From positions 429,598,001 through 429,662,000 of the forward strand of contig CM097882.1 of the NCBI GenBank assembly GCA_044892505.1: a stretch of 64,000 nt of DNA, given 5' to 3'. The notes beneath the pieces are model-generated. The model saw only the letters and a list, made by a program, of their open reading frames with translations, was not told where the DNA came from and searched no databases. The DNA is from Schmidtea nova (Eukaryota). This document shows positions 2,498 through 62,903 of the stretch, in pieces (the first letter of the stretch is position 1; every line of letters starts with the position of its first letter). The position numbers and the translations under genes were made by a program.

Positions 2498-3692
2498 GGT
2501 ATAAGTATACAATAGGGGGGCCACTTTTTTTAATTAAATTAAATAAATTTAAATATATAAATATAAATATAATCAATTAAATTTTAAAATATATCATAAG
2601 CCATGAATTTACAACAAATATATGAACTTTCGCGTGACACACTGTCTTTAATAAGACATTTCCAAAGAGTAGGTTTGCTACGAGCCGATCCCACCTGCTC
2701 AAACTGCGGACGCATTATGAAACTTGTAAAAGATTCAAAAGTAGTAAATGAATATATATTTGTTTGTCGTAGTCGGTCACACGTAAATCCGCATCGCAAC
2801 AAACAAACAATTACAACCGGGAGTTTTTTTTGTAATTCCAAATTACATATTCGTGATCTTTTCCTACTAATGTATTTTTGGGGCGCGGAATGCTCTGTTA
2901 AACAAGTTCAGCTTTTTACTAATATTTCAAAAAAAACTATCATTCAATGGTACCAGTATTTTAGAGATATTGCCAGTTGGAAGTTGGTTTCTCAGCCTTT
3001 ACTATTTGGTGGAGTTGATCATATCGTGCAAGCGGATGAATCGAAATTTATGAATTTGATGCATAATCGCGGAGAACCGAGAGGGAATGCACGCAGTGGT
3101 TGGGTTTTCGGAATTATAGACTGTACTACGAAGAATGTACACTTCGAGTTCGTTTATAATAGGACTCAACAAGAAATATTTCCAATTTTTTCGAGTGTTG
3201 TACTCCCGGGAACGACTATTTGGACTGATGAATTCTCTACTTATACTGGTGGTCCCAGACGAGACCCAAATGCCCCTACACCTTTAGCTAAATTGGGACC
3301 GTATGTACACCAGTGGGTGAATCACTCGGAACACTTCATTGATCCCGTTACCGGCGTTAACACCAACGGAATAGAAGGTTCGTGGGCGTTGTGTAAACGA
3401 AAATTTAAGTATATGTTTGGGACACGATGTAGCTTCATTCCTTCGTACCTCGACGAATTCATGTGGAGAAGAAGGTTTTGTCAAAATGAGCGAGCGTTTG
3501 ATATATTGATTGATCAAATAAGACAACGATATGATTTAAGTGTAACGTTAACTTAAATAAAAACTGACTTAATAGTCTTCCCTATATATAAGTATTTTAT
3601 TATACTCTTTTTATTAAATTAATAATTTATTATAATTTAAAATTTATTTAATTTAATTAAAAAAAGTGGCCCCCCTATTGTATACTTATACC
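2498..3692 (+). mobile_element. Merlin (IS1016-like) DNA transposon, apparently intact
   Basis: ~53-bp perfect TIRs starting GGTATAAG. 8-bp TSD GCTTTTTT at 2490-2497 and 3693-3700. Confidence 0.95.
2603..3556 (+). CDS. Merlin DDE transposase, 317 aa
   Basis: N-terminal Cys motif (CSNC...C). Catalytic motifs VQADESKF, IWTDEFSTY, TNGIEGSW, and YLDEFMWRR. Uninterrupted. Confidence 0.93.
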   Translation: MNLQQIYELSRDTLSLIRHFQRVGLLRADPTCSNCGRIMKLVKDSKVVNEYIFVCRSRSHVNPHRNKQTITTGSFFCNSKLHIRDLFLLMYFWGAECSVKQVQLFTNISKKTIIQWYQYFRDIASWKLVSQPLLFGGVDHIVQADESKFMNLMHNRGEPRGNARSGWVFGIIDCTTKNVHFEFVYNRTQQEIFPIFSSVVLPGTTIWTDEFSTYTGGPRRDPNAPTPLAKLGPYVHQWVNHSEHFIDPVTGVNTNGIEGSWALCKRKFKYMFGTRCSFIPSYLDEFMWRRRFCQNERAFDILIDQIRQRYDLSVTLT

Positions 3693-3917: not shown

Positions 3918-4787
3918 TTAAAAACTAATTTTTCTAGTTCCGAATGCGTTATAATTTTTTTGATTACTGACAAAATTATTTTGCCCGACAAAGATTATTC
4001 CATTAAATCCCAGAAAAGTTTCGCCATTTTCTACAAATCTGAAGAAAAGCAAAAATTATCGATAATTTTATGTACAAAAAATATTTTAACAATTATTGAT
4101 TTAAATTTAACCATCGATAATCAACGAATTTATACTCTAAATCCATAAAAGTGTTAGAATGTTTGATTTAACTCAGCGAAAGTTGTTAGCTCTTTAACCC
4201 ACCGTAACCCATAGCTTTTTAACCGCAATAACTTGTTACTTGATTTATTGCTTAAAGTCAGTGGGAAAATAGGGGCTAATCTTTTCCACCGGTTGGATAA
4301 TAGAGGGATTGGTCCCTTCATTGTTATTATTATATTATTAAAAATTTTTTATTTATCTCTATCTGACAATTAACGACTCAAATTAATACAACTTTCTCAA
4401 GTTACTGCTTCTTCGACCAAACTGGCAATTCGATGTTGTTTCCGTGCTGCTTCTATAGTTTTCCAGCTTGTCAACGAATCGATTATGTTTGCTAACTTGA
4501 GATGAAATTAGATTATGAATTTCAATAATTTGAAATTTTCGCTGATTGGAATTTGTTTAATTCAATTTACTTGATCCACGCTTTTCGTAATTTAATTTCA
4601 TCTCGGGTTCTCTTGCTCGGGCTCTCCACTAGCATGAACTCGGACTTTCCATTTATTCTGGTTTTCTACATAACTAAAAAATTATTCATTAATTTTTAAT
4701 TAATTTCTGTTTATTGAAAATATTTTTCTGGGGAACCTCCATTGATATTTTATTATCATATTCACATTCGTCTCCCCATTTGCCATC

Positions 4788-5455
4788 AGTAGGCAGAAGT
4801 GTGCACCATGAGTCATCGCAGAACAAAGGACATGACGTCATCGATGAGTCACCCATACCCCCGATGACTCATCGATGACTCATTTCAAATTTGAATTTTA
4901 TGACGTCATCGATGACTCATTTAAAATTTGAAATTTAAATTTCCAAGGGTCAAATATGGTGAAACCTTCAAACAAGGGTATCATTCGAAAGGTCTTGGAG
5001 AGGTCTATCCAATGGTCATACCCCCGAAAGTGTATGGAGGGTTCTTAACCTTCAAAGGGTCAAAAACCTTCAACCTTTTACAATCCTTATAATATACATA
5101 TCAATCGAAAGGTATTTGAAGGATTCACACAATGGTCATACCTTCGAAGGTCTATGATGGGTGCTCAACCTTCAAAGGGTACAAAACCTTCAAACATTAT
5201 AATATCATTCGAAAGGTAATTGTCAGGTAAGTACAGTGTGTGTGTTACAATCCTTTTTCAAACCTTATAATATACATATCATTCAAAAGGTAATTATCCG
5301 GTAAGTATGGTGTGTATGTGTGTGTGTTATAACTTTTCAACTACTATTTCCTACCCCAATTACAACAAAGACATTGCAATCCATGTGCAACGAAACCAAG
5401 ACTAATCAATTTTATTTATAAATATATTGTTGCGAACGTGTACAAATTTGGTTTC
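4788..5455 (+). repeat. Polinton left TIR (runs into N gap) with TGACGTCA/TGACTCA arrays and tandem subrepeats
   Basis: Diverged inverted copy of 11075-12071. Confidence 0.88.
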
Positions 5456-5755
5456 NNNNNNNNNNNNNNNNNNNNNNNNNNNNNNNNNNNNNNNNNNNNN
5501 NNNNNNNNNNNNNNNNNNNNNNNNNNNNNNNNNNNNNNNNNNNNNNNNNNNNNNNNNNNNNNNNNNNNNNNNNNNNNNNNNNNNNNNNNNNNNNNNNNNN
5601 NNNNNNNNNNNNNNNNNNNNNNNNNNNNNNNNNNNNNNNNNNNNNNNNNNNNNNNNNNNNNNNNNNNNNNNNNNNNNNNNNNNNNNNNNNNNNNNNNNNN
5701 NNNNNNNNNNACCTTTGATCTTTTTTTATTATTATTATCAATAATTCTCATAATG

Positions 5756-5910
5756 ACTATAGATCAAAATTTTTTTTATAAACAATAACACAATATTTCG
5801 GCACAGCCTTTATCAAGTGTGTATTTCTATAATAATAGAAATACACACTTGATAAAGGCTGTGCCGAAATATTGTGTTATTGTTTATAAAAAAAAATTTT
5901 GATCTATAGT
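5756..5910. repeat. Near-perfect 155-bp palindrome made of two Penelope 3' ends, each with a hammerhead-like motif (5788-5820 minus, 5845-5877 plus)
   Basis: ACTATAGATC...GATCTATAGT arms match the PLE tail at about 10749-10820. The block sits between two gaps. Confidence 0.75.
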
Positions 5911-6573
5911 NNNNNNNNNNNNNNNNNNNNNNNNNNNNNNNNNNNNNNNNNNNNNNNNNNNNNNNNNNNNNNNNNNNNNNNNNNNNNNNNNNNNNNNNNN
6001 NNNNNNNNNNNNNNNNNNNNNNNNNNNNNNNNNNNNNNNNNNNNNNNNNNNNNNNNNNNNNNNNNNNNNNNNNNNNNNNNNNNNNNNNNNNNNNNNNNNN
6101 NNNNNNNNNNNNNNNNNNNNNNNNNNNNNNNNNNNNNNNNNNNNNNNNNNNNNNNNNNNNNNNNNNNNNNNNNNNNNNNNNNNNNNNNNNNNNNNNNNNN
6201 NNNNNNNNNNNNNNNNNNNNNNNNNNNNNNNNNNNNNNNNNNNNNNNNNNNNNNNNNNNNNNNNNNNNNNNNNAAGACTTATAAAAAATAATAATAATAA
6301 TAATAATAATAATAAGACTAAGACTTATAATAATAAAAAATAATAACAAGACTTCTAATAATAATAATAAAAATAATAATAACTTATAGATTATAATTAA
6401 AATAAAATAAAAAATTTAGTTTTTCAAAAATAAATCAAAATTATTTTTGTCTAATTCAATTGTCAAATATCCATTCTTTTTCTTATTAATTTTCTTCTTC
6501 TTCTTTGTTAATAATTGACGACAAATCTGGAATAATAATAATAATAATAAATAAAATAAAAAATAAATTTACT

Positions 6574-7135
6574 TTAATATATACCGGTGGATGTTGATGG
6601 CTGATCACGCAATTGCTGCTCCATCCTCACTAGGTATTCATGGAGTCTGCGTGATTCAGCGGTTTCGCCATCATCGAATTCTTCACCGTCATCATCAAAT
6701 CCATCAGGTTCGGCTAGGGTATTGGCTTGATCGTTACCTATAACAGTATTTTCTACCCTATAGTTCCCGTATGCAAAACTTTTATTTTTAGACACCCAAT
6801 TTCGTTTGTCGTCGTTGCAATTGAGTGCTGTTTTTGTATTTTTTACGCTGAATATCTTATGATTTTTAGAAACTATACGAAACTGCGGGACTTTGTATAT
6901 TTTACTATTTGTGTAACAGTCTAGGTAATTAGAATGATGAAGCCCCGCAGTAGCCAAACATATACCCTTGGCTTTTAAACACTCTTCGTCGCCAAGTAAA
7001 CTATAGCATTTAGGCCGAAGAAAAACCCACTCTTCATATTTGAAGCCCTTATTTTCGTCCTTAAACTTTCCTATAACTGAATCTAGATTACGAGAAAATA
7101 AGGGATGGCTCGGGTCTTAGTTTTAAGTATCTAAA
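6574..7135 (-). pseudogene. Protein-primed family B DNA polymerase, C-terminal remnant
   Basis: LLDT*N*DPSHPLFSRNLDSVIGKFKDE...FLRPKCYSL...KAKG...SKNHKIFSVKNTKTALNCNDDKR...AYGNY are typical Polinton pPolB motifs; two stops. Confidence 0.85.
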
Positions 7136-7177
7136 AGTTGATCCCTCACCATAGCGGGCAAAAGAACAGAAAGCCTA

Positions 7178-7581
7178 CAGACAAGCATCCTTTATTTGCA
7201 AACATACTATGGTCTTTATATGGACATGAAATATTTTCTGGAACATCTTCAAATTCTTTAAAATTATATTTAATTAATCTTAATTTCGGAAAATATTTCT
7301 TCAAAACTTGCAATTTTTCATTATCTGTAACATAGAAAATAGCTCCTTTATCTATAATATCATCCATAATACATTTTGGGCAAAATTAATCTAGTCCTTA
7401 AAACCATTCTAAACGATCAGGCCAGAAAGATAAATCACTGTATATATAATTCTGAGGTGTGAAAATATAGGTGTAAAAAGATTAATTAAATATAATTTTA
7501 AAGAATTTGAAGATGTTCCAGAAAATATCTCATGTCCATATAAAGACCATAGTATGTGTGCAAATAAAGGATGCTTGTCTG
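7178..7581. repeat. 104-bp inverted duplication (7178-7281 / 7478-7581) of a Cys/His-containing ORF end
   Basis: The plus copy reads ...ISCPYKDHSMCANKGCLSGVIDYLKQ*; the minus copy is fused toward the pPolB remnant. Confidence 0.8.
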
Positions 7582-8749
7582 GTGTAATAGATTATTTAAA
7601 ACAATAAATGTATTATTCGTGTTTTATTATTATTATTATTATTAATATTTTTATAAACTTGCAGAATTCACATCCAATTTGCAGATTAACATCCATCTAG
7701 CAATACTTTTCGATAATCATAAAGAAATTGCATGCAGACACGCATGCAGACACTCAATTATTTCACATATAAATTTACTTGGGTGTATTCACATCTGCAT
7801 CTACACCCATAAGATATTTCATAAACACATTAGTCACGTAGTGTCTTTGTATAATTGCATCGAACATGCTTCGTGCAATATAACAAAGACATGACTCATA
7901 CTTGGTGAGTGATTTTTAACATACATACTCAGTGTGCACACATACTTTTTCTACCCTATCTCGCTTGTGATTGGCTCGTGAATAAAGTTTGTAATAAACG
8001 TGATATATACTATATGCTTTCATTATTTCGTCACAATTAAAACAAATCTTTTAAAATTTTATAAAATTATTACTTACCAATCAAATGCAAAATATTTCGA
8101 AAACAATCAAAAATATGATCAAGAAAAATGGTAATTTTTAATCTATTTTATTTATTATTTTTATATATAATTTTTCAGCTAACTTTAATTCGACAATGAA
8201 TGTCGTCAGCGCCCCTATGCCCGAAAATCAAAATGGTAAAAATCTTTAATTTTTTGAAAATATTAAATTATTTTTGCATTTTAGTTAGAAATGTCCAATT
8301 CACAAATCAGTTCTACGCTGCAAGTCGGAATGAAAAATTCAATGTAGATATCNNNNNNNNNNNNNNNNNNNNNNNNNNNNNNNNNNNNNNNNNNNNNNNN
8401 NNNNNNNNNNNNNNNNNNNNNNNNNNNNNNNNNNNNNNNNNNNNNNNNNNNNNNNNNNNNNNNNNNNNNNNNNNNNNNNNNNNNNNNNNNNNNNNNNNNN
8501 NNNNNNNNNNNNNNNNNNNNNNNNNNNNNNNNNNNNNNNNNNNNNNNNNNNNNNNNNNNNNNNNNNNNNNNNNNNNNNNNNACTATAGATCAAATTTTTT
8601 TTATAAACAATAACACAATATTTCGGCACAGCCTTTATCAAGTGTGTATTTCTATCGTTATATTTACTTAATCTTAAATAGTAGCCTTAATTATTTTTTT
8701 AATATTTTATAATGATTTTATTGGATGAAAAAATTTATTTTAATTTTTT

Positions 8750-10009
8750 TGTGCGAATTGAATGTTGATGGACGGTTTGTATTTTTTTATGAAAAAAGTC
8801 TCGGAAGCTAATCTTTGTAATGAATTTTTGAATCAATCTTGTAGAATCTGGCATTTTGTTTCTTCTATAGATGGAGTTGTTTTATGTACTTTCTCCCAGT
8901 GTTCGTAATAATTACTGGTTTTGATTTTAGTGTGTTCATTAAGTCGGGTGCGAAAAGTTCTATGTGTTTCTCCTATGTAAGTAGCGTCACATTTTTGGCA
9001 AGAAAGTTTATATACTATATTTTTGGAAAAGCAAAAGCATCGGGTTGTGGAACGGCAAAGACATTTATGTTTGGAGATGTTGGAAATTGGTGGTTTTCGG
9101 AGTTGTGATTTTAACGGTGCGGAGGTTATGAACGTTGGACGGATGTGGATAGGCAAATCTGTTTGATTAAAAATGTTGGTGATTTTGTTGGCTGTAGTGT
9201 CATTTAGGAAAGGTAATCTTAGATATGTTGTGTGTTTGTTATTGTTATTGTGTTTCTGGCGTTTTCTATTGTTGCGTTTATTGTGGTATGGTTCGTTAAG
9301 GAAGTGTTTCTTTACAAAGTCTTCAGGGTATCCATTTTGGAGGAATCGTATTTTGAAGTTTTCTAATGTTTCTTGTATTTTGTTTGCGTCTGAACAGTTT
9401 CTTGTGGCTCTTTTTCTTTCTCCTATTAGTAATGCGATTTTGCGTTGAAGTGGAACGTGGCTTTTCCATGGGAGGATATGACCGCTATGTAAACTTTTAG
9501 AATATAGCTCGGTGTTTGCATTTAGTGTATCTTAGCCTTTTGTAAAACTTACCATGGTATCTAAAAACGGTATTTTACCTTCTGTGTTCGGTGTTTCAAA
9601 AGTGAATTGTATGTTGGTGTTAGTAGAATTTGCGTGTGATAGGATTTGATTGAGAGGGATTGTGGAGACTATGAAGATGTCGTCGATGTATCGTTTCCAG
9701 AAAAGTATTTTGTCCCCAAAAAAAGATATGATCTTAGATTCTATAAAGTTCATGTAGAAGATGGCTAAGATGGGAGAAAGGTTATTACCCATGGCTAATC
9801 CATGAATTTGTTTGAATGGTTTTTCTTTAATTATGACAATATCTGAATTTATTGCTAATTTTAGAAGTTCTATAAAGTCTTGTTTAGTTAAGTCTGCGAG
9901 GTCAGTGTTGGCTTTATGAGTTTCAAAGAAAGAAGCTGCGATATCGAAAATGTTATTCTCTCCGTGAAGAGGAATAGATCCGTAAAGATTGGAAACATCA
10001 AGAGATCCC
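8750..10009 (-). pseudogene. Penelope RT plus GIY-YIG endonuclease, 5'-truncated, two premature stops
   Basis: LDVSNLYGSIP, GLAMGNNLSP, WKRYIDD, IPFLD; then IVYKLSC..C.ATYIGETHR...R..EH. Confidence 0.9.
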
Positions 10010-10662
10010 CAGACGCAAACAAAATACAAGAAACATTAGAAAACTTCAAAATACGATTCCTCCAAAATGGATACCCTGAAGACTTTGTAAAGAAACACTT
10101 CCTTAACGAACCATACCACAATAAACGCAACAATAGAAAACGCCAGAAACACAATAACAATAACAAACACACAACATATCTAAGATTACCTTTCCTAAAT
10201 GACACTACAGCCAACAAAATCACCAACATTTTTAATCAAACAGATTTGCCTATCCACATCCGTCCAACGTTCATAACCTCCGCACCGTTAAAATCACAAC
10301 TCCGAAAGCCACCAATTTCCAACATCTCCAAACATAAATGTCTTTGCCGTTCCACAACCCGATGCTTTTGCTTTTCCAAAAATATAGTATATAAACTTTC
10401 TTGCCAAAAATGTGACGCTACTTACATAGGAGAAACACATAGAACTTTTCGCACCCGACTTAATGAACACACTAAAATCAAAACCAGTAATTATTACGAA
10501 CACTGGGAGAAAGTACATAAAACAACTCCATCTATAGAAGAAACAAAATGCCAGATTCTACAAGAGGGATTCAAAAATTCATTACAAAGATTAGCTTCCG
10601 AGACTTTTTTCATAAAAAAATACAAACCGTCCATCAACATTCAATTCGCACAAAAAAATTAA
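10010..10662 (+). CDS. Penelope GIY-YIG endonuclease 3' fragment (inverted arm, no genuine start)
   Basis: NIVYKLSCQKCDATYIGETHRTFRTRLNEH...RLASETFFIKKYKPSINIQ. Confidence 0.8.
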
Positions 10663-10756
10663 AATAAATCTTTTCATCCAATAAAATCATTATAAAATAT
10701 TAAAAAAATAATTAAGGCTACTATTTAAGATTAAGTAAATATAACGATAGAAATAC

Positions 10757-10789
10757 ACACTTGATAAAGGCTGTGCCGAAATATTGTGT
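10757..10789 (+). ncRNA. Minimal hammerhead-like ribozyme with U3-A8 core variant (also at 8613-8645 minus)
   Basis: ACAC-UUGAUAA-A-GGC(UGU)GCC-GAAA-UA-UU-GUGU: stem I ACAC/GUGU, stem II GGC/GCC, palindromic stem III AAUAUU. Confidence 0.6.
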
Positions 10790-11074
10790 TATTGTTTATA
10801 AAAAAAATTTGATCTATAGTCATTATGAGAATTATTGATAATAATAATAAAAAAAGATCAAAGGTNNNNNNNNNNNNNNNNNNNNNNNNNNNNNNNNNNN
10901 NNNNNNNNNNNNNNNNNNNNNNNNNNNNNNNNNNNNNNNNNNNNNNNNNNNNNNNNNNNNNNNNNNNNNNNNNNNNNNNNNNNNNNNNNNNNNNNNNNNN
11001 NNNNNNNNNNNNNNNNNNNNNNNNNNNNNNNNNNNNNNNNNNNNNNNNNNNNNNNNNNNNNNNNNNNNNNNNNN

Positions 11075-12071
11075 ATCCAAATTTGTACACGTTCGCAACA
11101 ATATATTTATAAATAAAATTGATTAGTCTTGGTTTCGTTGCACATGGATTGCAATGTCCTTGTTTCGTTGCACATGAATTGCAATGTCTTTGTTTCGTTG
11201 CACATGGATTGCAATGTCTTTGTTGTAATTGGGGTAAGAAAAAGTCGTTGAAAAATTATAACACACACATACACATCATACTTACCTTTCGAATGATACG
11301 TATATTATAAGGTTTGAAAAAGGATTGTAACACACACACCGTACTTACCTGACAATTACCTTTCGAATGATATTATAAAGTTTGAAGGTTTGAAAAAGGA
11401 TTGTAACACACACACCGTACTTACCTGACAATTACCTTTCGAATGATATTATAATGTTTGAAGATTTTGTACTCTTTGAAGGTTGAGCACCCACCATAGA
11501 TCTTCGAAGGTATGACCATTGTGTGCACCCTTCAATTACCTTTCGATTGATATGTATATTATAAGGATTGTAAAAGGTTGAAGATTTTTGACCCTTTGAA
11601 GGTTAAGAACTCTCCATACACCTTCGGGGGTAAGACCATCTTACTTACCTCTCAATTACCTTTCGAATGATATGTTTATTATAAGGATTGTAAAAGGTTG
11701 AAGGTTTTTGACCCCTTGAAAGTTAAGAACATTCCATAAACCTTCGAGGGTATGACCATTGGATAGACCTCTCCAAGACCTTTCGAATGATACCCTAGTT
11801 TGAAGGTTTGACCTTATTTGACCTTTGGAAATTTAAATTTAAAATCTGAAATCTGAAATGCGTCATCGATGACGTCATAAAATTCAAATTTGAAACGACT
11901 CATCAATGAGTCATCAATGCAGTCATCGATGAATCATCAATGACGTCATCAATGACGTCATCGACGAGTCATTTGACGAGTCATCGATGAGTCATTGGGG
12001 ATATGGGTGACTAATCGATGACGTCATTTCCTTTGTTCTGGGATGACTCATAGTGCACACTTCTGTCTACT
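11075..12071 (-). repeat. Polinton right TIR, with 3x30-bp tandem repeat (11130-11222) and CRE/AP-1-like arrays
   Basis: Inverted copy of 4788-5455 with extra subrepeat units. Confidence 0.88.
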
Positions 12072-12189
12072 GCCATCCGTACTGTTGGTGTATTGCTCTT
12101 TTAAATTTAAACAAAATATTAACCTTCTACTTCCTTTCACTCATTTACCTTCTACCTTTGCTCTGTTTCCTTTCTAGGGTCGCAATACA

Positions 12190-26063: not shown

Positions 26064-27127
26064 TTTTGTTCAAAATAAAATTATCTATATTATATTATCA
26101 TAGTTATTTTTATTTATATATAAAATCTGACTCATAAATATAAAAATATTGAATGCTAAAAGATGCTAGCAAACATGCAATGTTCGTGATTTCACCTTCG
26201 TCCTAATCAATGCTTTTCGTCTCGCTCACCCATGAACTCGCAAATCATCTGAAAATCTCCACCGAAAATTCGTATTGTTGACAATTATAAAAGAAAATAA
26301 TTGCTCCGATATATTAGAAGATATGAAGAAAAGTTAAATTGCAGTTGAACCTCATTCTATCTGAAAGTGTTTAAAAAGTATAAAATTTATTTTATTCCTA
26401 AACTTAATTTCGGTTATGCGAAGCCTTCAGGCGAAGTGTAACGAAAAATTTGAGTGCACTTTGCTTGAAGAATTCGCATACGAATGAAATTTAGCTAGTA
26501 AAGATCCTATCTTCAAAATATTAATACCTAAAAAGTATTGGAATTAGAATAAGTTATGAAAGAAAATTTTCGTTGTTTAGGAATTTTTATATTTTATAAA
26601 TTTTTATTGAATTATTTTATTTTAGCATTTTATTGTTGGGCAAAAACTGCAAAGCAGTAACCCTATAAGTAGAGAGCGCGCAAGATTCAATTTTAACCCA
26701 AACATTCATTAAAGACCGAAGCGATTAATTGAAAAACGCCAAAAAGGTGAAATGGACTCAAGCACATCAACCAGTAGAGAACGCGCTAGCTGTGAATTTG
26801 CAAGTCCTTACACTGAAACCTCAAGAAAAATTAAAAGTCGTCAAAAGAAGAACGTTTGAAAGTTAGAATAGGCAGAAACCCCATTGAAAATGCCCATAAA
26901 GAACAGAATTGTGTCATAAAACTTCAGTGCAGAAAAAATTAACAAAAATTTTAGAAGAAAATTGTGATTTTATCATGAAATTTCACAAAAAAATAAAAAG
27001 AAACAATCTTGATCGAAATATCGCAAATTAAATCAAATTGAATAAATTTTGATTCAAAAATAAAAATTTTGGATTAAAAATAAATTATTTATGGTTTATA
27101 AAAATTATTAAGTAAAAATATTGATTT

Positions 27128-28188
27128 TGTTCGTCTGTGTGCGCAGTACTTTAATTTTGGAAGAGAGAATATTTTGTAGTCTGTGTGCGCGTTGACATTT
27201 TTTGTTATTTTTGATTGCCGGTATCGCGTCTGTGTGCGCCTCACGGTTTTTTTTTGTTTATCGCGTCTGTGTGCGCGTGGGTAATTTTGGTTGTGGTTTT
27301 TGTGAAATTGATTTAATTTTTAGATTTGGTTATTAATTGAATTTCAAAAAAAAAATCCAGTTGTTTAAATATTCCAATAATTGAAAGTTGGGATTTGTTT
27401 TAAAAAGGTGTTAATGGAAGGAATTTTTGGAAGCTTCGATTTAGAATTTATGGATCAAATTATGGCAATGGATAGGTCGACAAGAAAGGCTAAAGATGAT
27501 CATTCAATACAGAATAATAATGATAATAACGCTACGCATATGCAAGGAAGTTCAGAGAATCATTACAATTATTTCAATGACAGCAATAGGGATGTTATGT
27601 CGATGAATATTGATGCTAATTATGCTAATTTCAATATGCCAATGAACATGAATGCAGATTACAGGCCAGATGGATTCGCTAAAGCCTTGTTAGTTACTCC
27701 CAAGCAGGTGGCTGTCAATGCTGCCTTGGATTCTACTAAAATGATTTCTAAATTGCGTGCTTTGCATCATTCTAGCCAACAATTTCCGGATCTAGCATAT
27801 TTCAAATGGTATGGATTAGATTTGACTAACTTCAATGTGCCAAATGACAAAGAAGCTGGAATTTTCGAATCTTCAATGTCGAAAATTAGATCCGATCTTT
27901 CTCATATATCGAGTGATCACATAAACAATATTTCTCGCAAATCAACTGACAACAAGTCCTTAGAAACAATCTCTATCATATATCAGGTGATAAATCTTCT
28001 GATTTCGGTCATTTCGGTCAACAATGAATTGACAAACAAACATTCTCCGTTTGTGCCATCTTTGGACATACTCCGGCGATTGACGGCACAAATGTTGACT
28101 TACTGTGCATTACACGAGTTGAATGGAATTATCAATACTGTTTATTGTGTGAATAAAGATAATATGGACGTTCAATTAATGATTTCCA
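27128..28188 (+). repeat. BEL 5' LTR (1061 bp)
   Basis: Direct repeat of 34382-35441; four GTCTGTGTGCGC motifs in the first 150 bp; AATAAA at 28152. Confidence 0.97.
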
Positions 28189-31100
28189 ATGGTAGCAGAG
28201 CGTGGTTCCCACTGGGGGGCCACGCACACTTTGGAAGTCTGAGAGGAATCCTGTTAGTGTATATTTTTATTAAAAAGCCTAATATGTTTTGCGTAAATTT
28301 TTATAAATGTTTTAAATTTGTAATTGGGGTATGGACCAACATTCCCTCCCAAGCGCGTTTGAAAAGGGAAGTGAAGGTTGGAATGCTTTGGCTACCGGAT
28401 ATTGTGAAAGACGGCTGCTATGGGCCCCAGCATTCTTTTAAATTCCGGGAAAAAATGGTGTCACCTGCTTATGAAGCAACATGTATAGTAAAAGATAATT
28501 CGGTATTTAAAGGTGTAAATGTTAGTAGGTGCATTGGTTATGACAGCGAAGATTTTTCTTTGAATATCAGCCGGGAAATGTTGCAACAAGATAAAATGTT
28601 GAAAGGCTTAGAACCTTTTGTAGGAATAAAGGGAGATAAAAGTAATCATAAAAAGTTCTATAATCAAATTGTTAAAAATATTAAATTGGGTAATCATGAA
28701 AACAGGGCGAATATGAATAAAATAGGGGAATTATTGAGTTTTTATTCAATAGCAAGTGGTGATGAAAAGACAAGTTTAAAGAATAATAGTTCGCGAGTGA
28801 AAGAAAAGAAAATGGAGTCAACTTTACCTTTTGTTTTGCGATTGAGACGTGGAATACAGATTTTTGTTAAGACTCTAACAGGTAAAACCATAACACTGGA
28901 AGTTGAACCGAGGGACTCTATTGAGAAAATAAAAGCAAGGATCCAAGAGAAAGAGGGAATCCCGCCTGATCAACAGAGATTGATATTTGCAGGTAAACAA
29001 TTGGTAGGCGAAAGAATCCTGTCAGACTACCACATTCTAAAGGGGTCTACTATTCATCTGGCACTGAGATTGTGTGGAGGGAATGATGAAGAGGAGGAAT
29101 TAGAGGAAGGATTGAGAAAGAAGAGGAGTGTCAAATATAGATTGACGAAATTAAGAAACAGATGGATAAATGATATGTTGGCAGAAAATGCAACACATGT
29201 CCTTGATGAATATCAGGAAGCTATGGAAAGTGCCATAGAGAGTTTTGAAAGATTGGTGGATATTAGTAAAAGATTAGGAAGGGCAGATACAACATCGGGG
29301 CTAGAAGCGGATTTACAAGAGATAGAAAATAAGAACGAGAAGGTGGAAGAGTTGATTTCGTCAAAGGCCAATCAGTCTGTTAGGTCGGATGACAGTAATA
29401 CAATTAAAGAGGTAAATGGAAACGAAACGAAGAAAAGACTAGAAAAGATGCAGAAGATACGGATCCAGATATTTGATGGACACCAGAAAGAATATGAAAG
29501 TTGGAAAGCTGCTTTCCATACTTGTGTTGATAGTGCCCATGGAGATGATGATGAAAAGATGTTACACCTTCGATCCTATCTGAAAGGTGAACCGCTAAGG
29601 CTGATCGAAAATTTAGGATTTTCTGCAACGGGTTATAAAATGGCAAAAGAAAAGCTTGATAAAAGATATGGCGGGGAAGAACGAAATTACTTAGCTGCTC
29701 TGGAAGATATCGACAGGTTCCGACCCGTTCGGGAGAATGAAATGCTGGAAATAGAGGCATTTGTTGGACTATTGGAAACGCTAGAAGTTAGAATTATTAA
29801 TAATAGACGAGAGGGCGAAATGAACAACAGTTACTTATTGAAGAGATGCCTGCAAAAGCTACCCAGCTCGCTGCTATACAAGTGGAAGAAAGATTTTAAG
29901 GAGGGAAAGGTAACCGAATGTATCCAAGATTTGAGAAATTGGTTACAAGATGAAGTCGAGCTGTTAAGATCCACAAGAGAAACCCTTTATGGAGTCGGTG
30001 ATGGCAATAGAAGAAACGATTGGAAGAGGCAGGATGGACCGTCAAGAGAATTTGGGAATCTAAGGCAAGGGAACCGGACACTTGTTGGGCAAGTAGCAGA
30101 TTGGAAGGAAGACAAGACAAACATACCAAGAGACGGATTGTTGAGCACAAAGTTGAAGTGTTGGAAATGCAAGGAAAATCATTACTTGGATCAATGCAGA
30201 GAATTCAAAGAAATGAACCCCGCAATGCGGCGTAAAGCAGTAGGAGACTGGAAGTTATGCTTTAATTGTTTAAAGTCTAATCATGTAGCGTCGGAATGTC
30301 GAAAGGCTTCATTCTGTACTAGAGAGGGGTGTAAGTTGAAACACAGTAACCTACTGCATGTGGATCAGTCAGAGTCCAAAAGGAAGGAAAACACATTGAT
30401 GTCGGCTACTAAAGATGAATTATTAAAAAAGGAGCGAAAATACCTAAGCTTGAGGACCATACCGATCTACCTTGAGCATGGAGCGAAGAAAATTAAAGTA
30501 AATGCGCTGTTAGACGATGCAAGCTCCATTAGCTACATAAGTCAGAGTATTGCAGACGAGTTGGGTCTAAAGGGGAAAGAGGAAATAGTTCCTGTGAGCG
30601 TCATCGGAGGTCATATTCAAAATATGACAACAAGAATAGTCACGATGACGTTGATAAGTCATGATCAGAAGATGAGGAAAAAGTTTACAGCTGCAGCGGT
30701 GAAGAGTGTAACCGGGGAAATGCGAGTGATAAATTGGGCAAAGGAAAAATGGCAATGGGAGCACTTAAAGGATATTCGATTTCCAATGCTTGACGAACGA
30801 CAGGTTGTGCATGTTCTTATCGGAGCCGATTATTTAGGGTTGCAAAGAGCGTTGAAGGAAGTGGATGGGAAGATGGACGAACCAATCGCTAGATTAACTC
30901 CGCTTGGTTGGACCTGTGTAGGTGGAAATACGTTGGGCGTGTCATTGACCCACCAAACCAACTTTGTTCAAACGTATTTATCCAAGGACGAGGAGTTAGT
31001 TGGACAGGTAAAGTTGTTCTGGGAAATCGAGAACTTAAAGGAGAACCCGGCGCTCTTGACCAAAAGGGATCGTGAAGTTATTAAAATTACGGAAGAAAAG

Positions 31101-31349
31101 ATGGTTAACAGAGGAATGTTTTATCAAGTGAGTTTACCGTGGAAATCTGGAAAAGAAGAATTATCAAATAATACGCAAATGGCAATGAAACGCCTAGAAA
31201 GTTTAAAGCAAAAATTAGATAAAGATCAAGAGCTGAAGAAGGAATATGAAAGAATTTTGAAGGATCATGAAAGTAAGGATTACATTAGGAGGTTAAGCGA
31301 ACAAGAAAAGGTGGGAACGAAGTGGATGTTACCTCATTTTCCCATTTAA
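27414..31349 (+). CDS. LTR-encoded unknown domain + ubiquitin-like domain + Gag + protease
   Basis: One open frame from ATG 27414. Gag [16 protein letters not shown]; knuckles [42 protein letters not shown]; protease [12 protein letters not shown]. Confidence 0.85.
28190..28207 (+). promoter_or_regulatory. Primer-binding site, initiator tRNA-Met type
   Basis: TGGTAGCAGAGCGTGGTT, 1 nt after the LTR; complementary to an ...CTCTGCTACCA 3' end. Confidence 0.85.
28854..29081 (+). other. Ubiquitin-like domain inside the BEL polyprotein
   Basis: [19 protein letters not shown]...LRLCGG; 59/76 identical to canonical ubiquitin by manual count. Preceded by [13 protein letters not shown], the tail of a previous ubiquitin unit. 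Confidence 0.95.
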
Positions 31350-34345
31350 GAAAGGAAAAAGAAATATCGAAAGTCCGGATTGTATTTGATGCTGCAGCAA
31401 AATGTAATGGAAAGTGTTTGAATGATGTTTTGGAAACGGGACCGAAATTGCAAAATGATCTTTTCGAAATTTTGTTAAGATTCAGACGGTTTAAGGTAGC
31501 CATAGTAAGCGATATCGCCGAAATGTATCTACAAATAAGAGTAGCGGAAGAAGACAGACCTTACTTACGATTTTTGTGGAAAGAGGGTGAGAAGAGTGTG
31601 CAATTTGAATTTTCAAGACTAGTTTTCGGGTTGAATACGTCCCCGTTTCTTGCACAATATGTAACCCAACAACACGCGAGAAGATATGAAAAAAGTTACG
31701 CAAGAGCGGCTGAGACCATAATAAAATCTACATACATGGATGACAGCATTGACTCAGTAGAGACGGAGGAAGAAGCGCTAATTCTTAAAGAGGATCTGAA
31801 GTTACTGTGGGCAGAAGCAGGAATGAGGGCAAGAAAGTGGATGTCAAACTTGATTAAAGTAATGGAAACAATTCCGATCGAAGAACAAGCCAAGTCGTTA
31901 ACAATAGAAGAAAATAGAACAGTCACGATGAAGACATTTGGGATGTACTGGCTCGCAACGGACGATTTATTGAGATTTGAAGGACGAACGGCAGACAATG
32001 TGAAAATCACGAAAAGAATGTTATTAAGTTGGATAGCACGTATCTTTGATCCTTTGGGAATGCTTAGTGCATTCACAATTATTGGCAAATGCCTAATGCA
32101 AGAAGCGTGGATGATGGGAAGTAAGTGGGATGATGTTTTACCCCCAGAATTACAAAAAAGAGCGAGATGTTGGATGGAAGAATGTGAATTATTGAATCGA
32201 GTAATGATTCCAAGGAGATTATTGGGGAAGCAAAGCAACCCGTGGCGCTTACATGTATTTGTTGATGCGTCTAGTACTGCCTATGCAGCGGTTTGTTACC
32301 TTAGGGAAGAAGAGAGCGCCAAGGTTAAAATGAAATTTGTTGCGGCACGAGCAAAAGTAGCTCCAGTTAAAGTAATTAGCATTCCACGATTGGAATTGAT
32401 GGGCGCCTGTTTGGGTCTAAAGTTAGCTAAGAAAGTTGGAAAGGCGTTACAATATGAATTGAAAAATGTCATGTTTTGGACTGATAGTCAAGATACCTTG
32501 CACTGGATTCGTCATCATTCAAGACTATGGAAAACATTTGTTGCCAACCGAGTGAGTACCATTCAGAACGAGACAGATGCTGAACAATGGCGTTACGTTC
32601 CTACTAAGAGCAACCCAGCAGATATAGCCACTCGGGGAATGTCGGCATCAGATCATATAGGAGATAATATGTGGTGGGAAGGACCACCTTTTTTAAAACA
32701 CTTTGAAAGAAATTGGCCAAAAACGAAATTAGATATACAGGTAAATGAAAATAGAGAAAGAAAGCAAGCGACATTTGTCATAAATTTAGAAGAAGAGCAA
32801 CCTGGAAAATATCAAGTAAACTGTTGGCAACCTGAAACCTATTCAGCGTGGAAAAGATTGCTCAGAGTAAGAGCATGGGTGCATAGATTCGCAAATAATT
32901 GTCGAAACAAAAAGGAACTCCGAAGTGGGGAGTTAACAACCGACGAAATCAAAAAGATTGAAACGATAGTAATTCGAGAGGAGCAAAATGAGATCTTTAA
33001 GGATGAGATACGAGAGTTAAAAGACGGAAGACCATTGTATAAAAAGAGCAAAATACTGAGTTTGAATCCAATGCTCGATGAAGAAGGATTACTCAGGAGT
33101 AACAGTCGAATCATAAATGCAGAGTTCATGACATTAGAAGCAAGATACCCGATAATATTAAGTGCAAAACGATGGGTGACTAGACTGATAATAAGAAAAT
33201 ATCATCAAGACAGAGATCACTGCGCCGGAACAAATCATTTATTAAGCGATCTGCAGGAAAGGTTTTGGATAACGCAACCTAAAAGAGAAATCAAGAAGGT
33301 GGAATTTGAATGCCTAATCTGTAAAAAGAGACGAGCTTCTGGACGGTCCCAGAAGATGGCTCCACTACCTGCATTTCGATTGACGGAACCATTTAGACCA
33401 TTTGGAAAAGTGGGGGTTGATTTTGCGGGCCCATTCTTAACAATCCAGGGCCGAGGAAAAGCGAGGCTAAAGAGATATGTGTGTTTGTTTACATGTTTAC
33501 AAACTAGAGCAGTGCATCTGGAATTAGTGTACGGACTAACAACGGATTCATTCATACAAGCTTTAATAAGATTCATTGGGCGACGAGGAAAACCAGTGTT
33601 GATGTTATCAGACAACGGTACTAATTTCGTGGGAGCAACGGGGGAATTGAAAGATGTGATACTCGATGGTTATAAGATAACGAAGGAGTTGACAGCTCGG
33701 GAGATAAGATGGGTGTTTAATCCGCCAGCCGGGCCACATTTCGGAGGGGTTTATGAAGCGTTAATAAAATCGATGAAAAGAGCTGTGTCAGCAATAGTGG
33801 GTAATGCGGATATTACAGATGAAGAGATGCTGACAGTAGTAGCACGGATTGAAGGATTTTTGAATGCCAGACCGTTGACGACAAAAGGGGATGATGAAAA
33901 AGGACTTGAAGTACTGACACCTAACCATTTTTTAATACCCAGATGGTCAGAAATCGAGGCTAATGAAATAGAAACTAATAAGAAAATTAATATTCAGCGA
34001 CGATGGAAAAGGACGGTAGAGTTAACCAATCAAGTATGGAATAGATGGAAAAGAGAACTTGTGCCGATATGGATAAGCAGAGCCAAGTGGAGATCAGATC
34101 AAGAAGAGTTAATAACAGGTCAGTTAGTGTGGATTTTAGATAAAGAAAGCGAAAGTGTTGGAGAATGGCCATTGGGGAAGATCACAGAGTTAATGATGGG
34201 AAGCGATGGACGGACACGGGTAGTAAAGATGTGGAGTAAAGGGAAAGAGGTGATCCGTCCAATATCTCAGCTTTGCCCCTTGGAAGTAGAAGCAGAGAAG
34301 CAAGAAAATTTTAAAGAAAAAAAGGGGTTGGCGGAAAAGGAGTAA
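31322..34345 (+). CDS. BEL Pol: RT, RNase H, integrase (-1 frame relative to the upstream ORF)
   Basis: [68 protein letters not shown]. Confidence 0.95.
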
Positions 34346-34368
34346 ACAAGGAGAGTTGACGAGGAGTC

Positions 34369-34381
34369 AAAAGGGGGGGAA
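34369..34381 (+). promoter_or_regulatory. Polypurine tract
   Basis: Purine run immediately before the TG of the 3' LTR. Confidence 0.9.
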
Positions 34382-35441
34382 TGTTCGTCTGTGTGCGCAG
34401 TACTTTAATTTTGGAAGAGAGAATATTTTGTAGTCTGTGTGCGCGTTGACATTTTTTGTTATTTTTGATTGCCGGTATCGCGTCTGTGTGCGCCTCACGG
34501 TTTTTTTTGTTTATCGCGTCTGTGTGCGCGTGGGTAATTTTGGTTGTGGTTTTTGTGAAATTGATTTAATTTTTAGATTTGGTTATTAATTGAATTTCAA
34601 AAAAAAAATCCAGTTGTTTAAATATTCCAATAATTGAAAGTTGGGATTTGTTTTAAAAAGGTGTTAATGGAAGGAATTTTTGGAAGCTTCGATTTAGAAT
34701 TTATGGATCAAATTATGGCAATGGATAGGTCGACAAGAAAGGCTAAAGATGATCATTCAATACAGAATAATAATGATAATAACGCTACGCATATGCAAGG
34801 AAGTTCAGAGAATCATTACAATTATTTCAATGACAGCAATAGGGATGTTATGTCGATGAATATTGATGCTAATTATGCTAATTTCAATATGCCAATGAAC
34901 ATGAATGCAGATTACAGGCCAGATGGATTCGCTAAAGCCTTGTTAGTTACTCCCAAGCAGGTGGCTGTCAATGCTGCCTTGGATTCTACTAAAATGATTT
35001 CTAAATTGCGTGCTTTGCATCATTCTAGCCAACAATTTCCGGATCTAGCATATTTCAAATGGTATGGATTAGATTTGACTAACTTCAATGTGCCAAATGA
35101 CAAAGAAGCTGGAATTTTCGAATCTTCAATGTCGAAAATTAGATCCGATCTTTCTCATATATCGAGTGATCACATAAACAATATTTCTCGCAAATCAACT
35201 GACAACAAGTCCTTAGAAACAATCTCTATCATATATCAGGTGATAAATCTTCTGATTTCGGTCAATTCGGTCAACAATGAATTGACAAACAAACATTCTC
35301 CGTTTGTGCCATCTTTGGACATACTCCGGCGATTGACGGCACAAATGTTGACTTACTGTGCATTACACGAGTTGAATGGAATTATCAATACTGTTTATTG
35401 TGTAAATAAAGATAATATGGACGTTCAATTAATGATTTCCA
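34382..35441 (+). repeat. BEL 3' LTR (1060 bp) with the same open frame (ATG 34667, stop at 35467 in flanking DNA)
   Basis: Direct repeat of the 5' LTR. Confidence 0.97.
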
Positions 35442-36120
35442 GATTTAATTCGGCGAAAAATTATTAGAATTAATTTCGAGAAATTAAAAAGAATATTCTA
35501 GAACAATTTGTTTTACTGCATTAGTTATGGTAACGCAAAATCGATGGTATATATACCGCCATCAAAATGGCAAGAATCAGAATTTTTGTGGAAATTTTTC
35601 TTGTGGTGGAATTTGTGTGAGAATTTTTCTAAGAATTTCAGAAAATTTTGTGTCGGAGCTTTTGTCTCAAAATCTTTGTGAAAGAATTGAATTTCAGAGA
35701 ATTTTGTGTAGAAGAATTTGTGAAAGAATTTGGTGAAATTTTGCGAGAGAATTTTCCTACGAATTTTCTAAGAATTTTTTTTTGAATTGCGCAGATTGGA
35801 GAAAATTCCTGAAGAAAGTAATAAAAACGATGTAAGAATTTTTTGTTATTTTTTTTTTGGCTTGGGATCATCGATCATCATGCCTGACGATTATCCCATG
35901 CCTCGCGTTTTGTTTATATTATTTTATTCTAATTTATTTATTTTATTCTTGATGATAAGGTATAATTGTATTATTCTTTTATATGGGGAAAAATATTAAT
36001 CATATTTTAATTGATTTTGTTTTTAATTTTTGTCTTTGTCACAAATTTCCCAATTAAATAAAATCCTATTTTAATATATATATCTAAGTAAAAATAAAAA
36101 TTTTTTTTTCTCCACACAAT

Positions 36121-60568: not shown

Positions 60569-61506
60569 CTTTGGATAAAACAGACTTAATACCTAATCTT
60601 ACAACGTCAGTTGAGAGTGTAAAATTTAGCTCACTAATCAAATAGACTTTAAATTCTAGACGAACCGATCGAATCAAACCCAGACGAATTAGGTATTTTG
60701 GTTTCTGTATTATTTTATTCATGATTGTGTCATTTGTTTTGTCATTTATCTATTGATCTAATTATTTATGTGTTTATGCGTTCATGTGTCGAAATTTGTT
60801 ATATGAATTATATAAATTAAACGTTATTGTGATTAGACTCAACATTAAAATATATAATGATCATATTAATTTTGCGCCGTTGGGAGCTTTAGGTTCCCAA
60901 GGTGTCAGTCCGTGGCGTGGTGCTCGAGGGCTCCACACACGGTAAAGTAATAAATAACCAAATATGATTTTATTAGTAGTGGTCGAGATTTGCACATGGG
61001 ACACCCAACAAATCCGGGGAATTATTTTCCGATCATTTTAACTACAGAGGAGGCGATTTTCGGATAAAGTCTAACGATGTAGGATAAGAAAGAATTTTTC
61101 GACTGTGAGGAGGCACAATTTTTCACCCTCACCACAGCACAGTTGCTAAATAAACATCTAATAAACCTTAGAAAATTAGGTCGACCGCATTTGATATGAA
61201 AGGGGCGTTTTCCGAGTAAGCTAGGAGATATATGACGTGAGAGAGTTTCCGTTTTGGGATACCAATGTTTCGATATCCACGCAGACAAAACACCAATTTT
61301 CGACTATATTATTGATCGTAAACGAATAAATCTAAGCAGACACGAGAGTAAGGTACACCGTAACGAGCAACAGTTTTTCTTGATTTCAGTTAAGGTCTAA
61401 GGAGAAGACAAATAATAAAGGCATCACGATGAGAGATAACATCTACTATAATTAATCATTGATTTAAATTGTTAACTATTATAAAATTCAGCATCATTCT
61501 AGTATC

Positions 61507-61983
61507 ATGACTAAACACAGATTCACCATCAAAAAGCGACGAGAACGAGCCCGAATTAGCCCATTAAAGCCGGCTCCTTTTGAAATTTTGCAACAAATCC
61601 ATCAAAAAATGTGGGCATGGCGCCGAGAGCTTGTAACCGCATGTCCATTTACAGTATGGGACCATCCACGGCATCACGTATGGTACCGGGGATGCGCTAG
61701 TTGGCCAATCATTCCAGACGAGGAATTCGAATCATGGCACGCCGCCTGGTTCGTTCTGATGTTGGATAAGCGGGGATTCCCGAACTGTGTAATTTATTGG
61801 GGGTTCATTCCAGCCTCTACATTCAAGGAATTGGGATTCACTTTCCATACAGCAATACGACCCCTTCGGGAAGCTGAGAGGATCCGTCTCCAGCAAGCCT
61901 CACCCAACTCCACTGGAATCAGCTCAAATTTGCAAATCAGATCGATATTTTCGTACCGAGGAAAAATGACCGAAGATGAATAG
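61507..61983 (+). CDS. ORF1, 158 aa, Trp-rich, function unknown
   Basis: Open frame followed by AATAAA; homologues in units B and D. Confidence 0.75.
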   Translation: MTKHRFTIKKRRERARISPLKPAPFEILQQIHQKMWAWRRELVTACPFTVWDHPRHHVWYRGCASWPIIPDEEFESWHAAWFVLMLDKRGFPNCVIYWGFIPASTFKELGFTFHTAIRPLREAERIRLQQASPNSTGISSNLQIRSIFSYRGKMTEDE

Positions 61984-62318
61984 TTGAATAAATGGCCACC
62001 TGTTTTGAATTAAATAAATGTTTTAGAGGAATCTGAAGTGTTGCATTTTGTTAATAGCGCTATAATGTAGATGAGAAATTTATTAACCTCTAGTGCTGTA
62101 GATGTTACCGTCAGTAGGACATTCTTTCACTAATGTAAAACAGTTGAGCAAAATTTTGAGCCTCCAATCATTAAATAGAAAAATAATTTTGGTGTAAAGA
62201 TTTAATACTTGAACACAGTAGTATGCATTTTTGCTCCTAAATCGTAAATAGTCACTTAATTAAAATGACCTTGTTGATAGGTTCTCCAGCGAATTTATCG
62301 TTATAATATTCAGACATC

Positions 62319-62903
62319 ATGCCGATTTCAGAAAACTCGAAGAGAATCATGGGACAAATCCAAGATAGAAAGTTGAGGGACCAGCAGAGGCAGATCAAGC
62401 GACTCACGGTAGCAAATGATGAACTGAGAGCGAAGTGGTTCTCACCCGAGCAAATGAAGGGTCAATCGCAAAAACTCGAGCGAATGCAGGAAGCACTGGC
62501 CGCAACTAAATTAGAGCTTGACGCCGTCCAGAGAGAACTACGAAATTGCCTGAATGCAGTAACAAGAAGTTATATCGACTCCGAATTACGAGCGCTAATC
62601 CGGCCGATCACGGCTCAGCGCTGGACACAAAGTACTTATCAAGATGTCGCTTGCGGGACGGAAGATGGTATCATCATGGCCCCCACTCTTGTAACGGACG
62701 AATTGCCTACTTTTCACAGTGATCCATCGAGAACAATTGCGTCAGCACTTGTCCTAAACCCACAGCTTCGAAAACACCGAATGGGATCGCGACAGCGTCG
62801 GCGTCGCCGAGAATTTGCGAAGCGCCTGGACGAGCAAATCCACCACTTAAACTCCTTAACCGAAGCAGAGTTGATTCAGGAGATTAGTCTGGAGTTTGCG
62901 TAG
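62319..62903 (+). CDS. ORF2, 194 aa, coiled coil with Arg-rich C-terminal motif, function unknown
   Basis: Open frame followed by AATAAA at about 62946; homologues at 12554, 21350, 48902 and possibly 39303. Confidence 0.8.
   Translation: MPISENSKRIMGQIQDRKLRDQQRQIKRLTVANDELRAKWFSPEQMKGQSQKLERMQEALAATKLELDAVQRELRNCLNAVTRSYIDSELRALIRPITAQRWTQSTYQDVACGTEDGIIMAPTLVTDELPTFHSDPSRTIASALVLNPQLRKHRMGSRQRRRRREFAKRLDEQIHHLNSLTEAELIQEISLEFA

Follow-up and report, generated by a model that had tools for sequence, protein, structure and literature searches.

A BEL/Pao retrotransposon at positions 27128-35441 (plus strand) of a 64,000-nucleotide (nt) stretch of Schmidtea nova contig CM097882.1, hereafter the window, begins its polyprotein reading frame inside its own long terminal repeat (LTR). 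The 480-codon leader that this frame places upstream of Gag is a mosaic of host gene fragments, with pieces of CCT1, NOP14, PAC1 and Hsp90 followed by the tail of one polyubiquitin unit and by a further ubiquitin unit. The NOP14 piece has lost a host intron, and the host pieces are joined in their native frames. In related copies found by searching the host genome, a 1.25-Gb animal assembly, the open frame is conserved, the leader drifts neutrally and a ubiquitin ending in Gly-Gly (GG) stands before Gag in every lineage sampled. From these comparisons it seems probable that translation from the LTR ATG produces a leader-ubiquitin-Gag(-Pol) protein, which a host deubiquitinase (DUB) would cut at the GG, and that the leader is disposable.

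An open frame that crosses the LTR boundary

The frame opens at ATG 27414, runs through 258 codons of the LTR, reads the primer binding site (PBS) as NGSRAWF and reaches the ubiquitin unit at 28854 after a further 222 codons, just as the preliminary description of this DNA had reported. It reaches the AATAAA at 28152 without a prior stop, and in the 3' LTR the same frame is open over 34667-35467 and ends in flanking DNA. The suspicion that such openness is not accidental is borne out: 480 open codons would arise by chance with a probability of about 1e-17, and among 2000 shuffled versions of 27414-28853 no open frame exceeds 157 codons. ATG 27414 is also the first ATG of the LTR, there being none in the preceding 286 nt, where about 6.8 are expected. 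Other copies conserve the frame, which is open from the LTR ATG to ubiquitin in 26 of 30 close copies (the window copy counted). Scattered stops are absent elsewhere, 147 of 150 protein matches, all of them best candidates, being free of internal stops.

The content of the frame differs from what had been supposed. The LTR does hold the start of the polyprotein frame, as proposed, but the evidence does not support a single novel helical domain at the N-terminus. Instead, the leader is a patchwork of host fragments with a ratio of nonsynonymous to synonymous substitution rates (dN/dS) of about 1.1, and its content is wholly different between sister LTRs. Nor is it unrecognizable, for Pfam and PDB searches match CCT-alpha at amino acids (aa) 77-160 and Hsp90 at aa 376-466.

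Host origin of the leader pieces

The CCT1 fragment is 93.7% identical over 222 nt to a gene of the same genome. The NOP14 fragment, whose source was found in one of seven fetched genome stretches (L194), lacks a host intron of about 1 kb with GT-AG ends, which is missing from the LTR at 27913/27914. All recognized host pieces lie on the sense strand and in their native frames, and the other five frames of the leader have no Pfam family match. At the CCT1/NOP14 and NOP14/PAC1 joins, 8 nt are common to the host sequences on both sides; these are two of the two LTR joins for which both host sides are available. The Hsp90/ubiquitin join is less clear-cut. Directly before the ubiquitin unit stands the tail of a further one, which shows that the unit came from a polyubiquitin message.

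Comparison with homologues and the genome yielded no host source for aa 13-87 and 259-376. Homologue searches with aa 160-258 and with the Asn/Met-rich module gave nothing useful, three matches to repeat proteins being judged chance. Atlas searches on the leader modules returned leads below 0.9 or none, and a PDB search with the NOP14-type LTR frame found no match.

Ubiquitin at the Gag junction

All 20 copies picked by their DUF1759 domain, which belong to five lineages with Gag cores 34-61% identical, carry a ubiquitin that ends in GG before Gag. The GG is kept in 105 of 107 ubiquitin units, and Met1 in 29 of the 107. Natural endings of the unit include LRLCGG, LRLRGG, LRLKGG and MGLKGG. Across 75 distinct units, L8, I36, L73 and G75 are invariant; I44, which together with L8 (100%) marks the hydrophobic patch, is kept in 97%. 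In contrast, the GG of the upstream ubiquitin, which is the unneeded one, survives in 19 of 69. Relative to host polyubiquitin, dS exceeds 1.2, part of it host-side, and dN is about 0.15. When ubiquitin-Gag fusions were sought in other species, the best 120 of 1711 matches were dominated by polyubiquitins.

These patterns bear on a rather improbable alternative, in which the leader is translated but ubiquitin stays attached and serves Gag as a tag for its folding, its trafficking, budding-type machinery or its turnover, or else translation of Gag begins at an internal start or uses a spliced message and the open leader merely avoids nonsense decay. Retention of the hydrophobic patch while Arg74 is not kept would suit such a tag, and the surviving Met1 residues would suit an internal start. 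However, Gag would then bear hundreds of arbitrary, freely swapped residues, and the near-complete conservation of the GG beside Gag, set against its decay upstream, argues for cleavage.

Probable selection on the frame and drift of its content

Substitutions were counted as distinct changes relative to the window copy at 68 loci and are called shared when they occur in at least two loci. Shared changes in the leader comprise 177 nonsynonymous and 54 synonymous (dN/dS 1.14), whereas Gag has 76 and 115 (0.25; Fisher p = 1e-14 for leader versus Gag). The ubiquitin unit has 31 and 40, with a pooled dN/dS of 0.32. Pairwise values agree with the pooled counts, ranging over 1.0-3.9 for the Hsp90 piece and 0.08-0.23 for Gag. 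Among leader stops, there is one shared case against 8.4 expected (p = 0.002) and there are eight singletons against 6.8 expected. Shared insertions and deletions (indels) are multiples of three in nine of ten cases in the LTR-coded part, compared with one of 19 upstream of the ATG, and the lone non-triplet indel of the coded part sits just before a second ATG at 27450. Between the PBS and ubiquitin, seven non-triplet indels form compensating sets (11+1, 5+7 and 1+50). Selection is thus likely to keep the frame open and not to preserve the amino acids of the leader.

The same data can be used to evaluate whether the LTR encodes a real functional domain, such as chaperone fragments with an effect on the host. 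Chaperone pieces do recur (CCT1, Hsp90, Hsp70 and PAC1), and the CCT1 piece in three sister LTRs has a dN/dS of 0.12-0.37 against the host gene, which may reflect either host-side synonymous change or real constraint. However, the leader drifts among copies at the ratio given above, and comparison with host genes yields 1.6 for Hsp90, 3.2 for Hsp70 and 2.9 for NOP14, values whose excess over 1 may reflect mutation bias. The pieces are also cut in mid-domain and swapped wholesale between sister copies with near-identical Gag. A functional LTR-coded domain is largely refuted by this drift and turnover, and we regard it as highly improbable.

Turnover of the captured cargo

Copies with near-identical Gag may carry Hsp70 where Hsp90 sits in the window copy, or may have entirely different LTRs, with the same frame open across the PBS. 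To sample this variety, 40 loci (L131-L170) were taken, 20 among 150 listed ubiquitin matches and 20 among 150 listed DUF1759 matches, each set hand-picked for a range of scores. A PBS is found in 36 of the 40, and upstream of it each of the 36 has a stretch of 65-419 open codons that begins with a Met. In 33 of these the frame is in register with ubiquitin, and in 32 it is open up to ubiquitin. Among 19 distinct spacings, 16 are in frame (p = 7e-6).

Of the 36 LTR peptides, 20 were scanned and 14 match host families (E up to 0.001). The families include HECT, RNA polymerase large subunit, PSD13, CobW, ribonucleotide reductase, VPS35, prenyltransferase, FHA and CID, with one weak match; a piece of a Cdc14-type phosphatase and PAC1 are further examples. 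In all, 16 cargo families are identified, and several modules lack a family match. The VPS35 cargo of one copy (L156) is assembled from five pieces that in the host lie across about 20 kb; the introns are absent, and the one junction checked to the base shows exact intron removal with GT/AG flanks. LTR cargo is about 89-97% identical to host genes. One LTR frame (L150) starts with what we take to be calmodulin's own N-terminus, followed by a HECT piece. The LTR of L164 contains a CID-domain piece, which presumably comes from U2SURP. The leaders of five copies (L040, L081, L085, L087 and L090) have a second, decayed ubiquitin fragment upstream of Hsp90, an older capture layer.

Such cargo might also act as an RNA-level shield. 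Silencing of the element through small RNAs such as PIWI-interacting RNAs (piRNAs) would be costly to the host, or a 5' end translated throughout would let the element pass for an ordinary mRNA in pioneer-round surveillance. We consider this unlikely, although it is compatible with a translated leader released at ubiquitin: it asks why cargo should be an advantage instead of simply being tolerated, and the frame and ubiquitin would make cargo affordable. The long LTR frames in every PBS-bearing copy sampled and the frequent matches to host families are in keeping with a shield. The cargo is also recent, with an identity to host genes near the approximately 90% at which captured pieces are described as directing host targeting in Drosophila (PMC13534243, in part). 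In planarians, SMEDWI-1 is proposed to make piRNAs from poorly translated transcripts at the pioneer round (PMC10954484, in part). On the other hand, the cargo is a broad set of abundant housekeeping genes, as passive capture predicts, and no PIWI gene is among the 16 identified families, unlike the Drosophila cases. Hsp90 does have a part in piRNA loading.

A proposed mechanism and its difficulties

Host cargo could be captured by reverse transcriptase switching templates at short shared sequences. This would probably happen while a long R-U5 strong-stop DNA is being made and so would put the cargo into both LTRs at once; it follows from established LTR replication that a capture at that stage, through such an R, would enter both progeny LTRs. 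Transcription would start upstream of 27414, and ribosomes would likely start at the LTR ATG. Host DUBs would then cleave behind the GG of ubiquitin, freeing Gag. Ubiquitin would in this way insulate Gag from upstream content, and therefore cargo would be free to turn over provided that no stop or frameshift enters. Because the leader would be disposable, any frame-keeping capture could survive.

Several observations weigh against this mechanism or soften its support. Arg74 is kept in 40% of distinct ubiquitin units and is Cys in the lineage of the window copy, and Arg72 is lost in one lineage; loss of either residue may hinder some DUBs. Within the window lineage the dN/dS of ubiquitin is 0.8-1.4, on small counts (7-10 nonsynonymous and 2-5 synonymous), so its short-term constraint is loose, and the pooled value probably owes much to differences between lineages. 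Two lineages still have the Met1 of ubiquitin and might therefore use an internal start. The singleton dN/dS of the leader is 0.67, not 1, and the low CCT1 values noted above point in the same direction. Genome searches score best candidates only, which favours intact copies; the 20 DUF1759 loci were chosen by hand from the 150 listed; and the copies are related and recombining, so that counts are not independent events.

A broader view can be offered tentatively. It is possible that in a whole BEL/Pao clade the LTR is an ever-refreshed, fully translated disguise of essential host mRNAs, which would pass stem-cell translation surveillance and hold host genes hostage to piRNA silencing, an arrangement that the self-releasing ubiquitin tag would have made workable.

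The usual role of an LTR is regulatory, and an element that has captured genes is usually crippled by them. Here, capture looks like a standing state of active families, located at the 5' end of the polyprotein and bounded by one conserved junction. These elements offer a natural test of whether host sequence resides in transposons by accident or as a shield. They also predict that the genome holds hundreds of near-identical false copies of CCT1, Hsp70, Hsp90, ubiquitin, VPS35 and other genes, which would confound annotation, the design of RNA interference experiments and piRNA mapping. Solo LTRs would each combine a promoter with an open frame of shuffled host exons and could supply material from which new genes arise.

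LTR layout and anatomy of the window copy

The ATG-free first 286 nt of the LTR contain four CGTCTGTGTGCGC motifs. This motif has eight matches in the window, all within the two LTRs (0.01 expected), and its core 8-mer is found in 41 of 54 distinct LTR 5' ends. It occurs two to four times at the 5' end of most sister LTRs. In 51 distinct leaders, the 120 nt that precede the first Met contain 59 out-of-frame ATGs, where 101 are expected. AATAAA lies within 70 nt of the PBS in 76 of 94 copies, ATTAAA in 5 and neither in 13. Judged from this layout, U3 would be short, R about 800 nt long and U5 very short. No fixed initiator-like motif was found upstream of the LTR ATG, and RNA folding after the PBS is no better than in shuffled sequences (z = -1.2). 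At about window positions 27360-27390, the 5' part of the LTR gives way to a different one in many copies (matches begin at query 232-260). This switch point could be the U3/R boundary, marked by strand-transfer swaps.

The window copy has the structure of a BEL/Pao element: paired TG...CA LTRs of 1061 and 1060 bp, which differ by two mismatches and one indel, a target duplication, a PBS and a polypurine tract (Table 1). A domain search finds Gag DUF1759, protease, reverse transcriptase (RT), Peptidase_A17, integrase and DUF5641 in BEL order, with pol frameshifted. The frameshift lies at 31345-31349 despite the youth of the copy (LTRs differing at 3 places in 1060), and several other matches of the element sit in open frames of more than 2,300 codons.

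Table 1. Features of the BEL/Pao element in window coordinates
Feature	Positions	Strand	Remarks
5' target-site duplication GATTT	27123..27127	+	5 bp; partner at 35442-35446
5' LTR, TG...CA	27128..28188	+	1061 bp
Four CGTCTGTGTGCGC copies, ATG-free 5' LTR part	27132..27276	+	likely U3 promoter/enhancer
Open reading frame (ORF) 1, leader-ubiquitin-Gag-protease	27414..31349	+	1311 aa; ends at pol frame break near 31345
Asn/Met-rich module, aa 13-87	27450..27670	+	second ATG at 27450; joined to a HECT piece in L131
CCT1/TCP1-alpha fragment	27671..27892	+	native frame; DNA 93.7% identical to that of host gene L051
NOP14-like fragment	27885..28091	+	native frame; about 89% to host L194; Nop14 E 2e-7, under curated cut-off
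PAC1/PSMG1 remnant	28078..28146	+	89.9% over 69 nt versus host L119; longer in sister LTR L085
AATAAA, likely poly(A) signal	28152..28157	+	translated in frame as Asn-Lys
PBS	28190..28207	+	18 nt complementary to host tRNA-Met(CAT) 3' end; in-frame GSRAWF
Post-PBS leader, non-coding look but open	28208..28540	+	no family match
Hsp90 middle-domain fragment	28541..28817	+	native frame; 84% over aligned codons; 27-nt deletion
Tail of previous polyubiquitin unit	28818..28853	+	GG decayed to LRLRRG
Ubiquitin unit	28854..29081	+	Met1 to Ile; LRLCGG abuts Gag; predicted host-DUB cleavage site
BEL/Pao Gag	29082..30400	+	N-terminal helical part, DUF1759 at 29472-29903, Cys/His knuckles
Rest of pol, other frame: RT, Peptidase_A17/RNase H region, integrase, DUF5641	31289..34345	+	
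Polypurine tract	34369..34381	+	read from sequence
3' LTR	34382..35441	+	same 258 open codons from 34667

The primer tRNA-Met is, we presume from its features, the initiator tRNA. Its 3' end has 1034 matches genome-wide, and a tandem array of tRNA-Met(CAT) genes with 458-bp spacing begins at G000:C1:510090090 (L116). At two loci (L085 and L089) the element forms tandem LTR-internal-LTR arrays. Many copies (L033, L036, L040, L041, L073, L074, L081 and L082) lack most of pol past the point that matches window position 30933. In these pol-poor copies the frame continues as an acidic, coiled-coil-like stretch that reaches 570 codons and gives no clear Pfam match; they probably form a non-autonomous subfamily whose C-terminal domain is its own.

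Elsewhere in the window, large nested inverted repeats with 811-nt perfect arms occupy 8582-10820 and 4693-12072, and an ORF inside them (9916-10662) has no clear Pfam match. An ISXO2-like transposase ORF (2603-3556) flanked by 84-nt inverted repeats lies at 2498-3692. GC-richer DNA at 61468-62903 contains two ORFs, 171 and 198 codons long, neither of which clearly matches a family.

Comparison with known systems

The published systems below are taken as the relevant parts of the cited sources portray them. In yeast Ty1, a short stretch of the element's own Gag is all that precedes the primer site. Ty1 resembles the window element in having its tRNA-iMet primer site within the GAG frame, but it has neither host cargo nor ubiquitin (PMC4974528).

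LTR-mediated retroposition is known in animals and includes chimeras of the Pao elements BATUMI and BEL18_AG (Tan et al. 2016, PMC5131818). As in the window element, partial spliced host mRNAs are fused with an LTR element where the two share a short sequence, and a chimera may contain several genes, often in native frame, and be re-amplified. In those chimeras, however, the retrocopy replaces the internal ORFs, giving low-copy non-autonomous loci. The window element instead carries its cargo in the leader as well as in both LTRs, ahead of gag and in the same frame, and belongs to high-copy families in five lineages that keep gag and often pol. Maize Bs1 is likewise an LTR element with a chimeric frame from three host genes, but it has one to five copies, fixed switch points, one piece out of frame and internal cargo, and a ubiquitin junction is not mentioned in the parts of the two sources that describe it (PMC5131818, PMC7264820).

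The closest parallel to the junction itself comes from pestiviruses. In the ubiquitin insertions of bovine viral diarrhoea virus (BVDV) Osloss, CP1 and CP Rit, captured host mRNA ends in a ubiquitin unit directly before a viral protein; host hydrolases cut at the ubiquitin to give a defined N-terminus, and truncated ubiquitin still works (PMC8310069). Those are RNA virus variants, whereas here the junction is a retrotransposon trait across deeply diverged lineages, with cleavage predicted from sequence.

Two further systems share single features. Drosophila telomeric TART/HeT-type elements, active retroelements that repeatedly capture 140-235 bp host pieces (nxf2, piwi, aub), are non-LTR; nearly all of their cargo comes from the piRNA pathway and acts via small RNAs, and they have no in-frame leader (PMC13534243). 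The planarian giant Ty3/gypsy elements Burro and GYPSM1 have host-like domains in their polyprotein, including a Ubi2/SUMO-like one, but they belong to the gypsy superfamily, and their Gag is N-terminal with the extra domains after it (PMC6431247). Within the BEL/Pao superfamily, Flow has been described from a planarian in a survey that also cites a 2008 Schmidtea BEL entry in Repbase (PMC3118150); the word 'ubiquitin' does not occur in the survey's main text. No description of the combined arrangement was found in the main text of the open-access literature searched, so that a prior mention elsewhere is possible. Each ingredient thus has precedent, and they are arranged here as a leader of host-mRNA mosaic insulated from Gag by ubiquitin, family-wide and selected.

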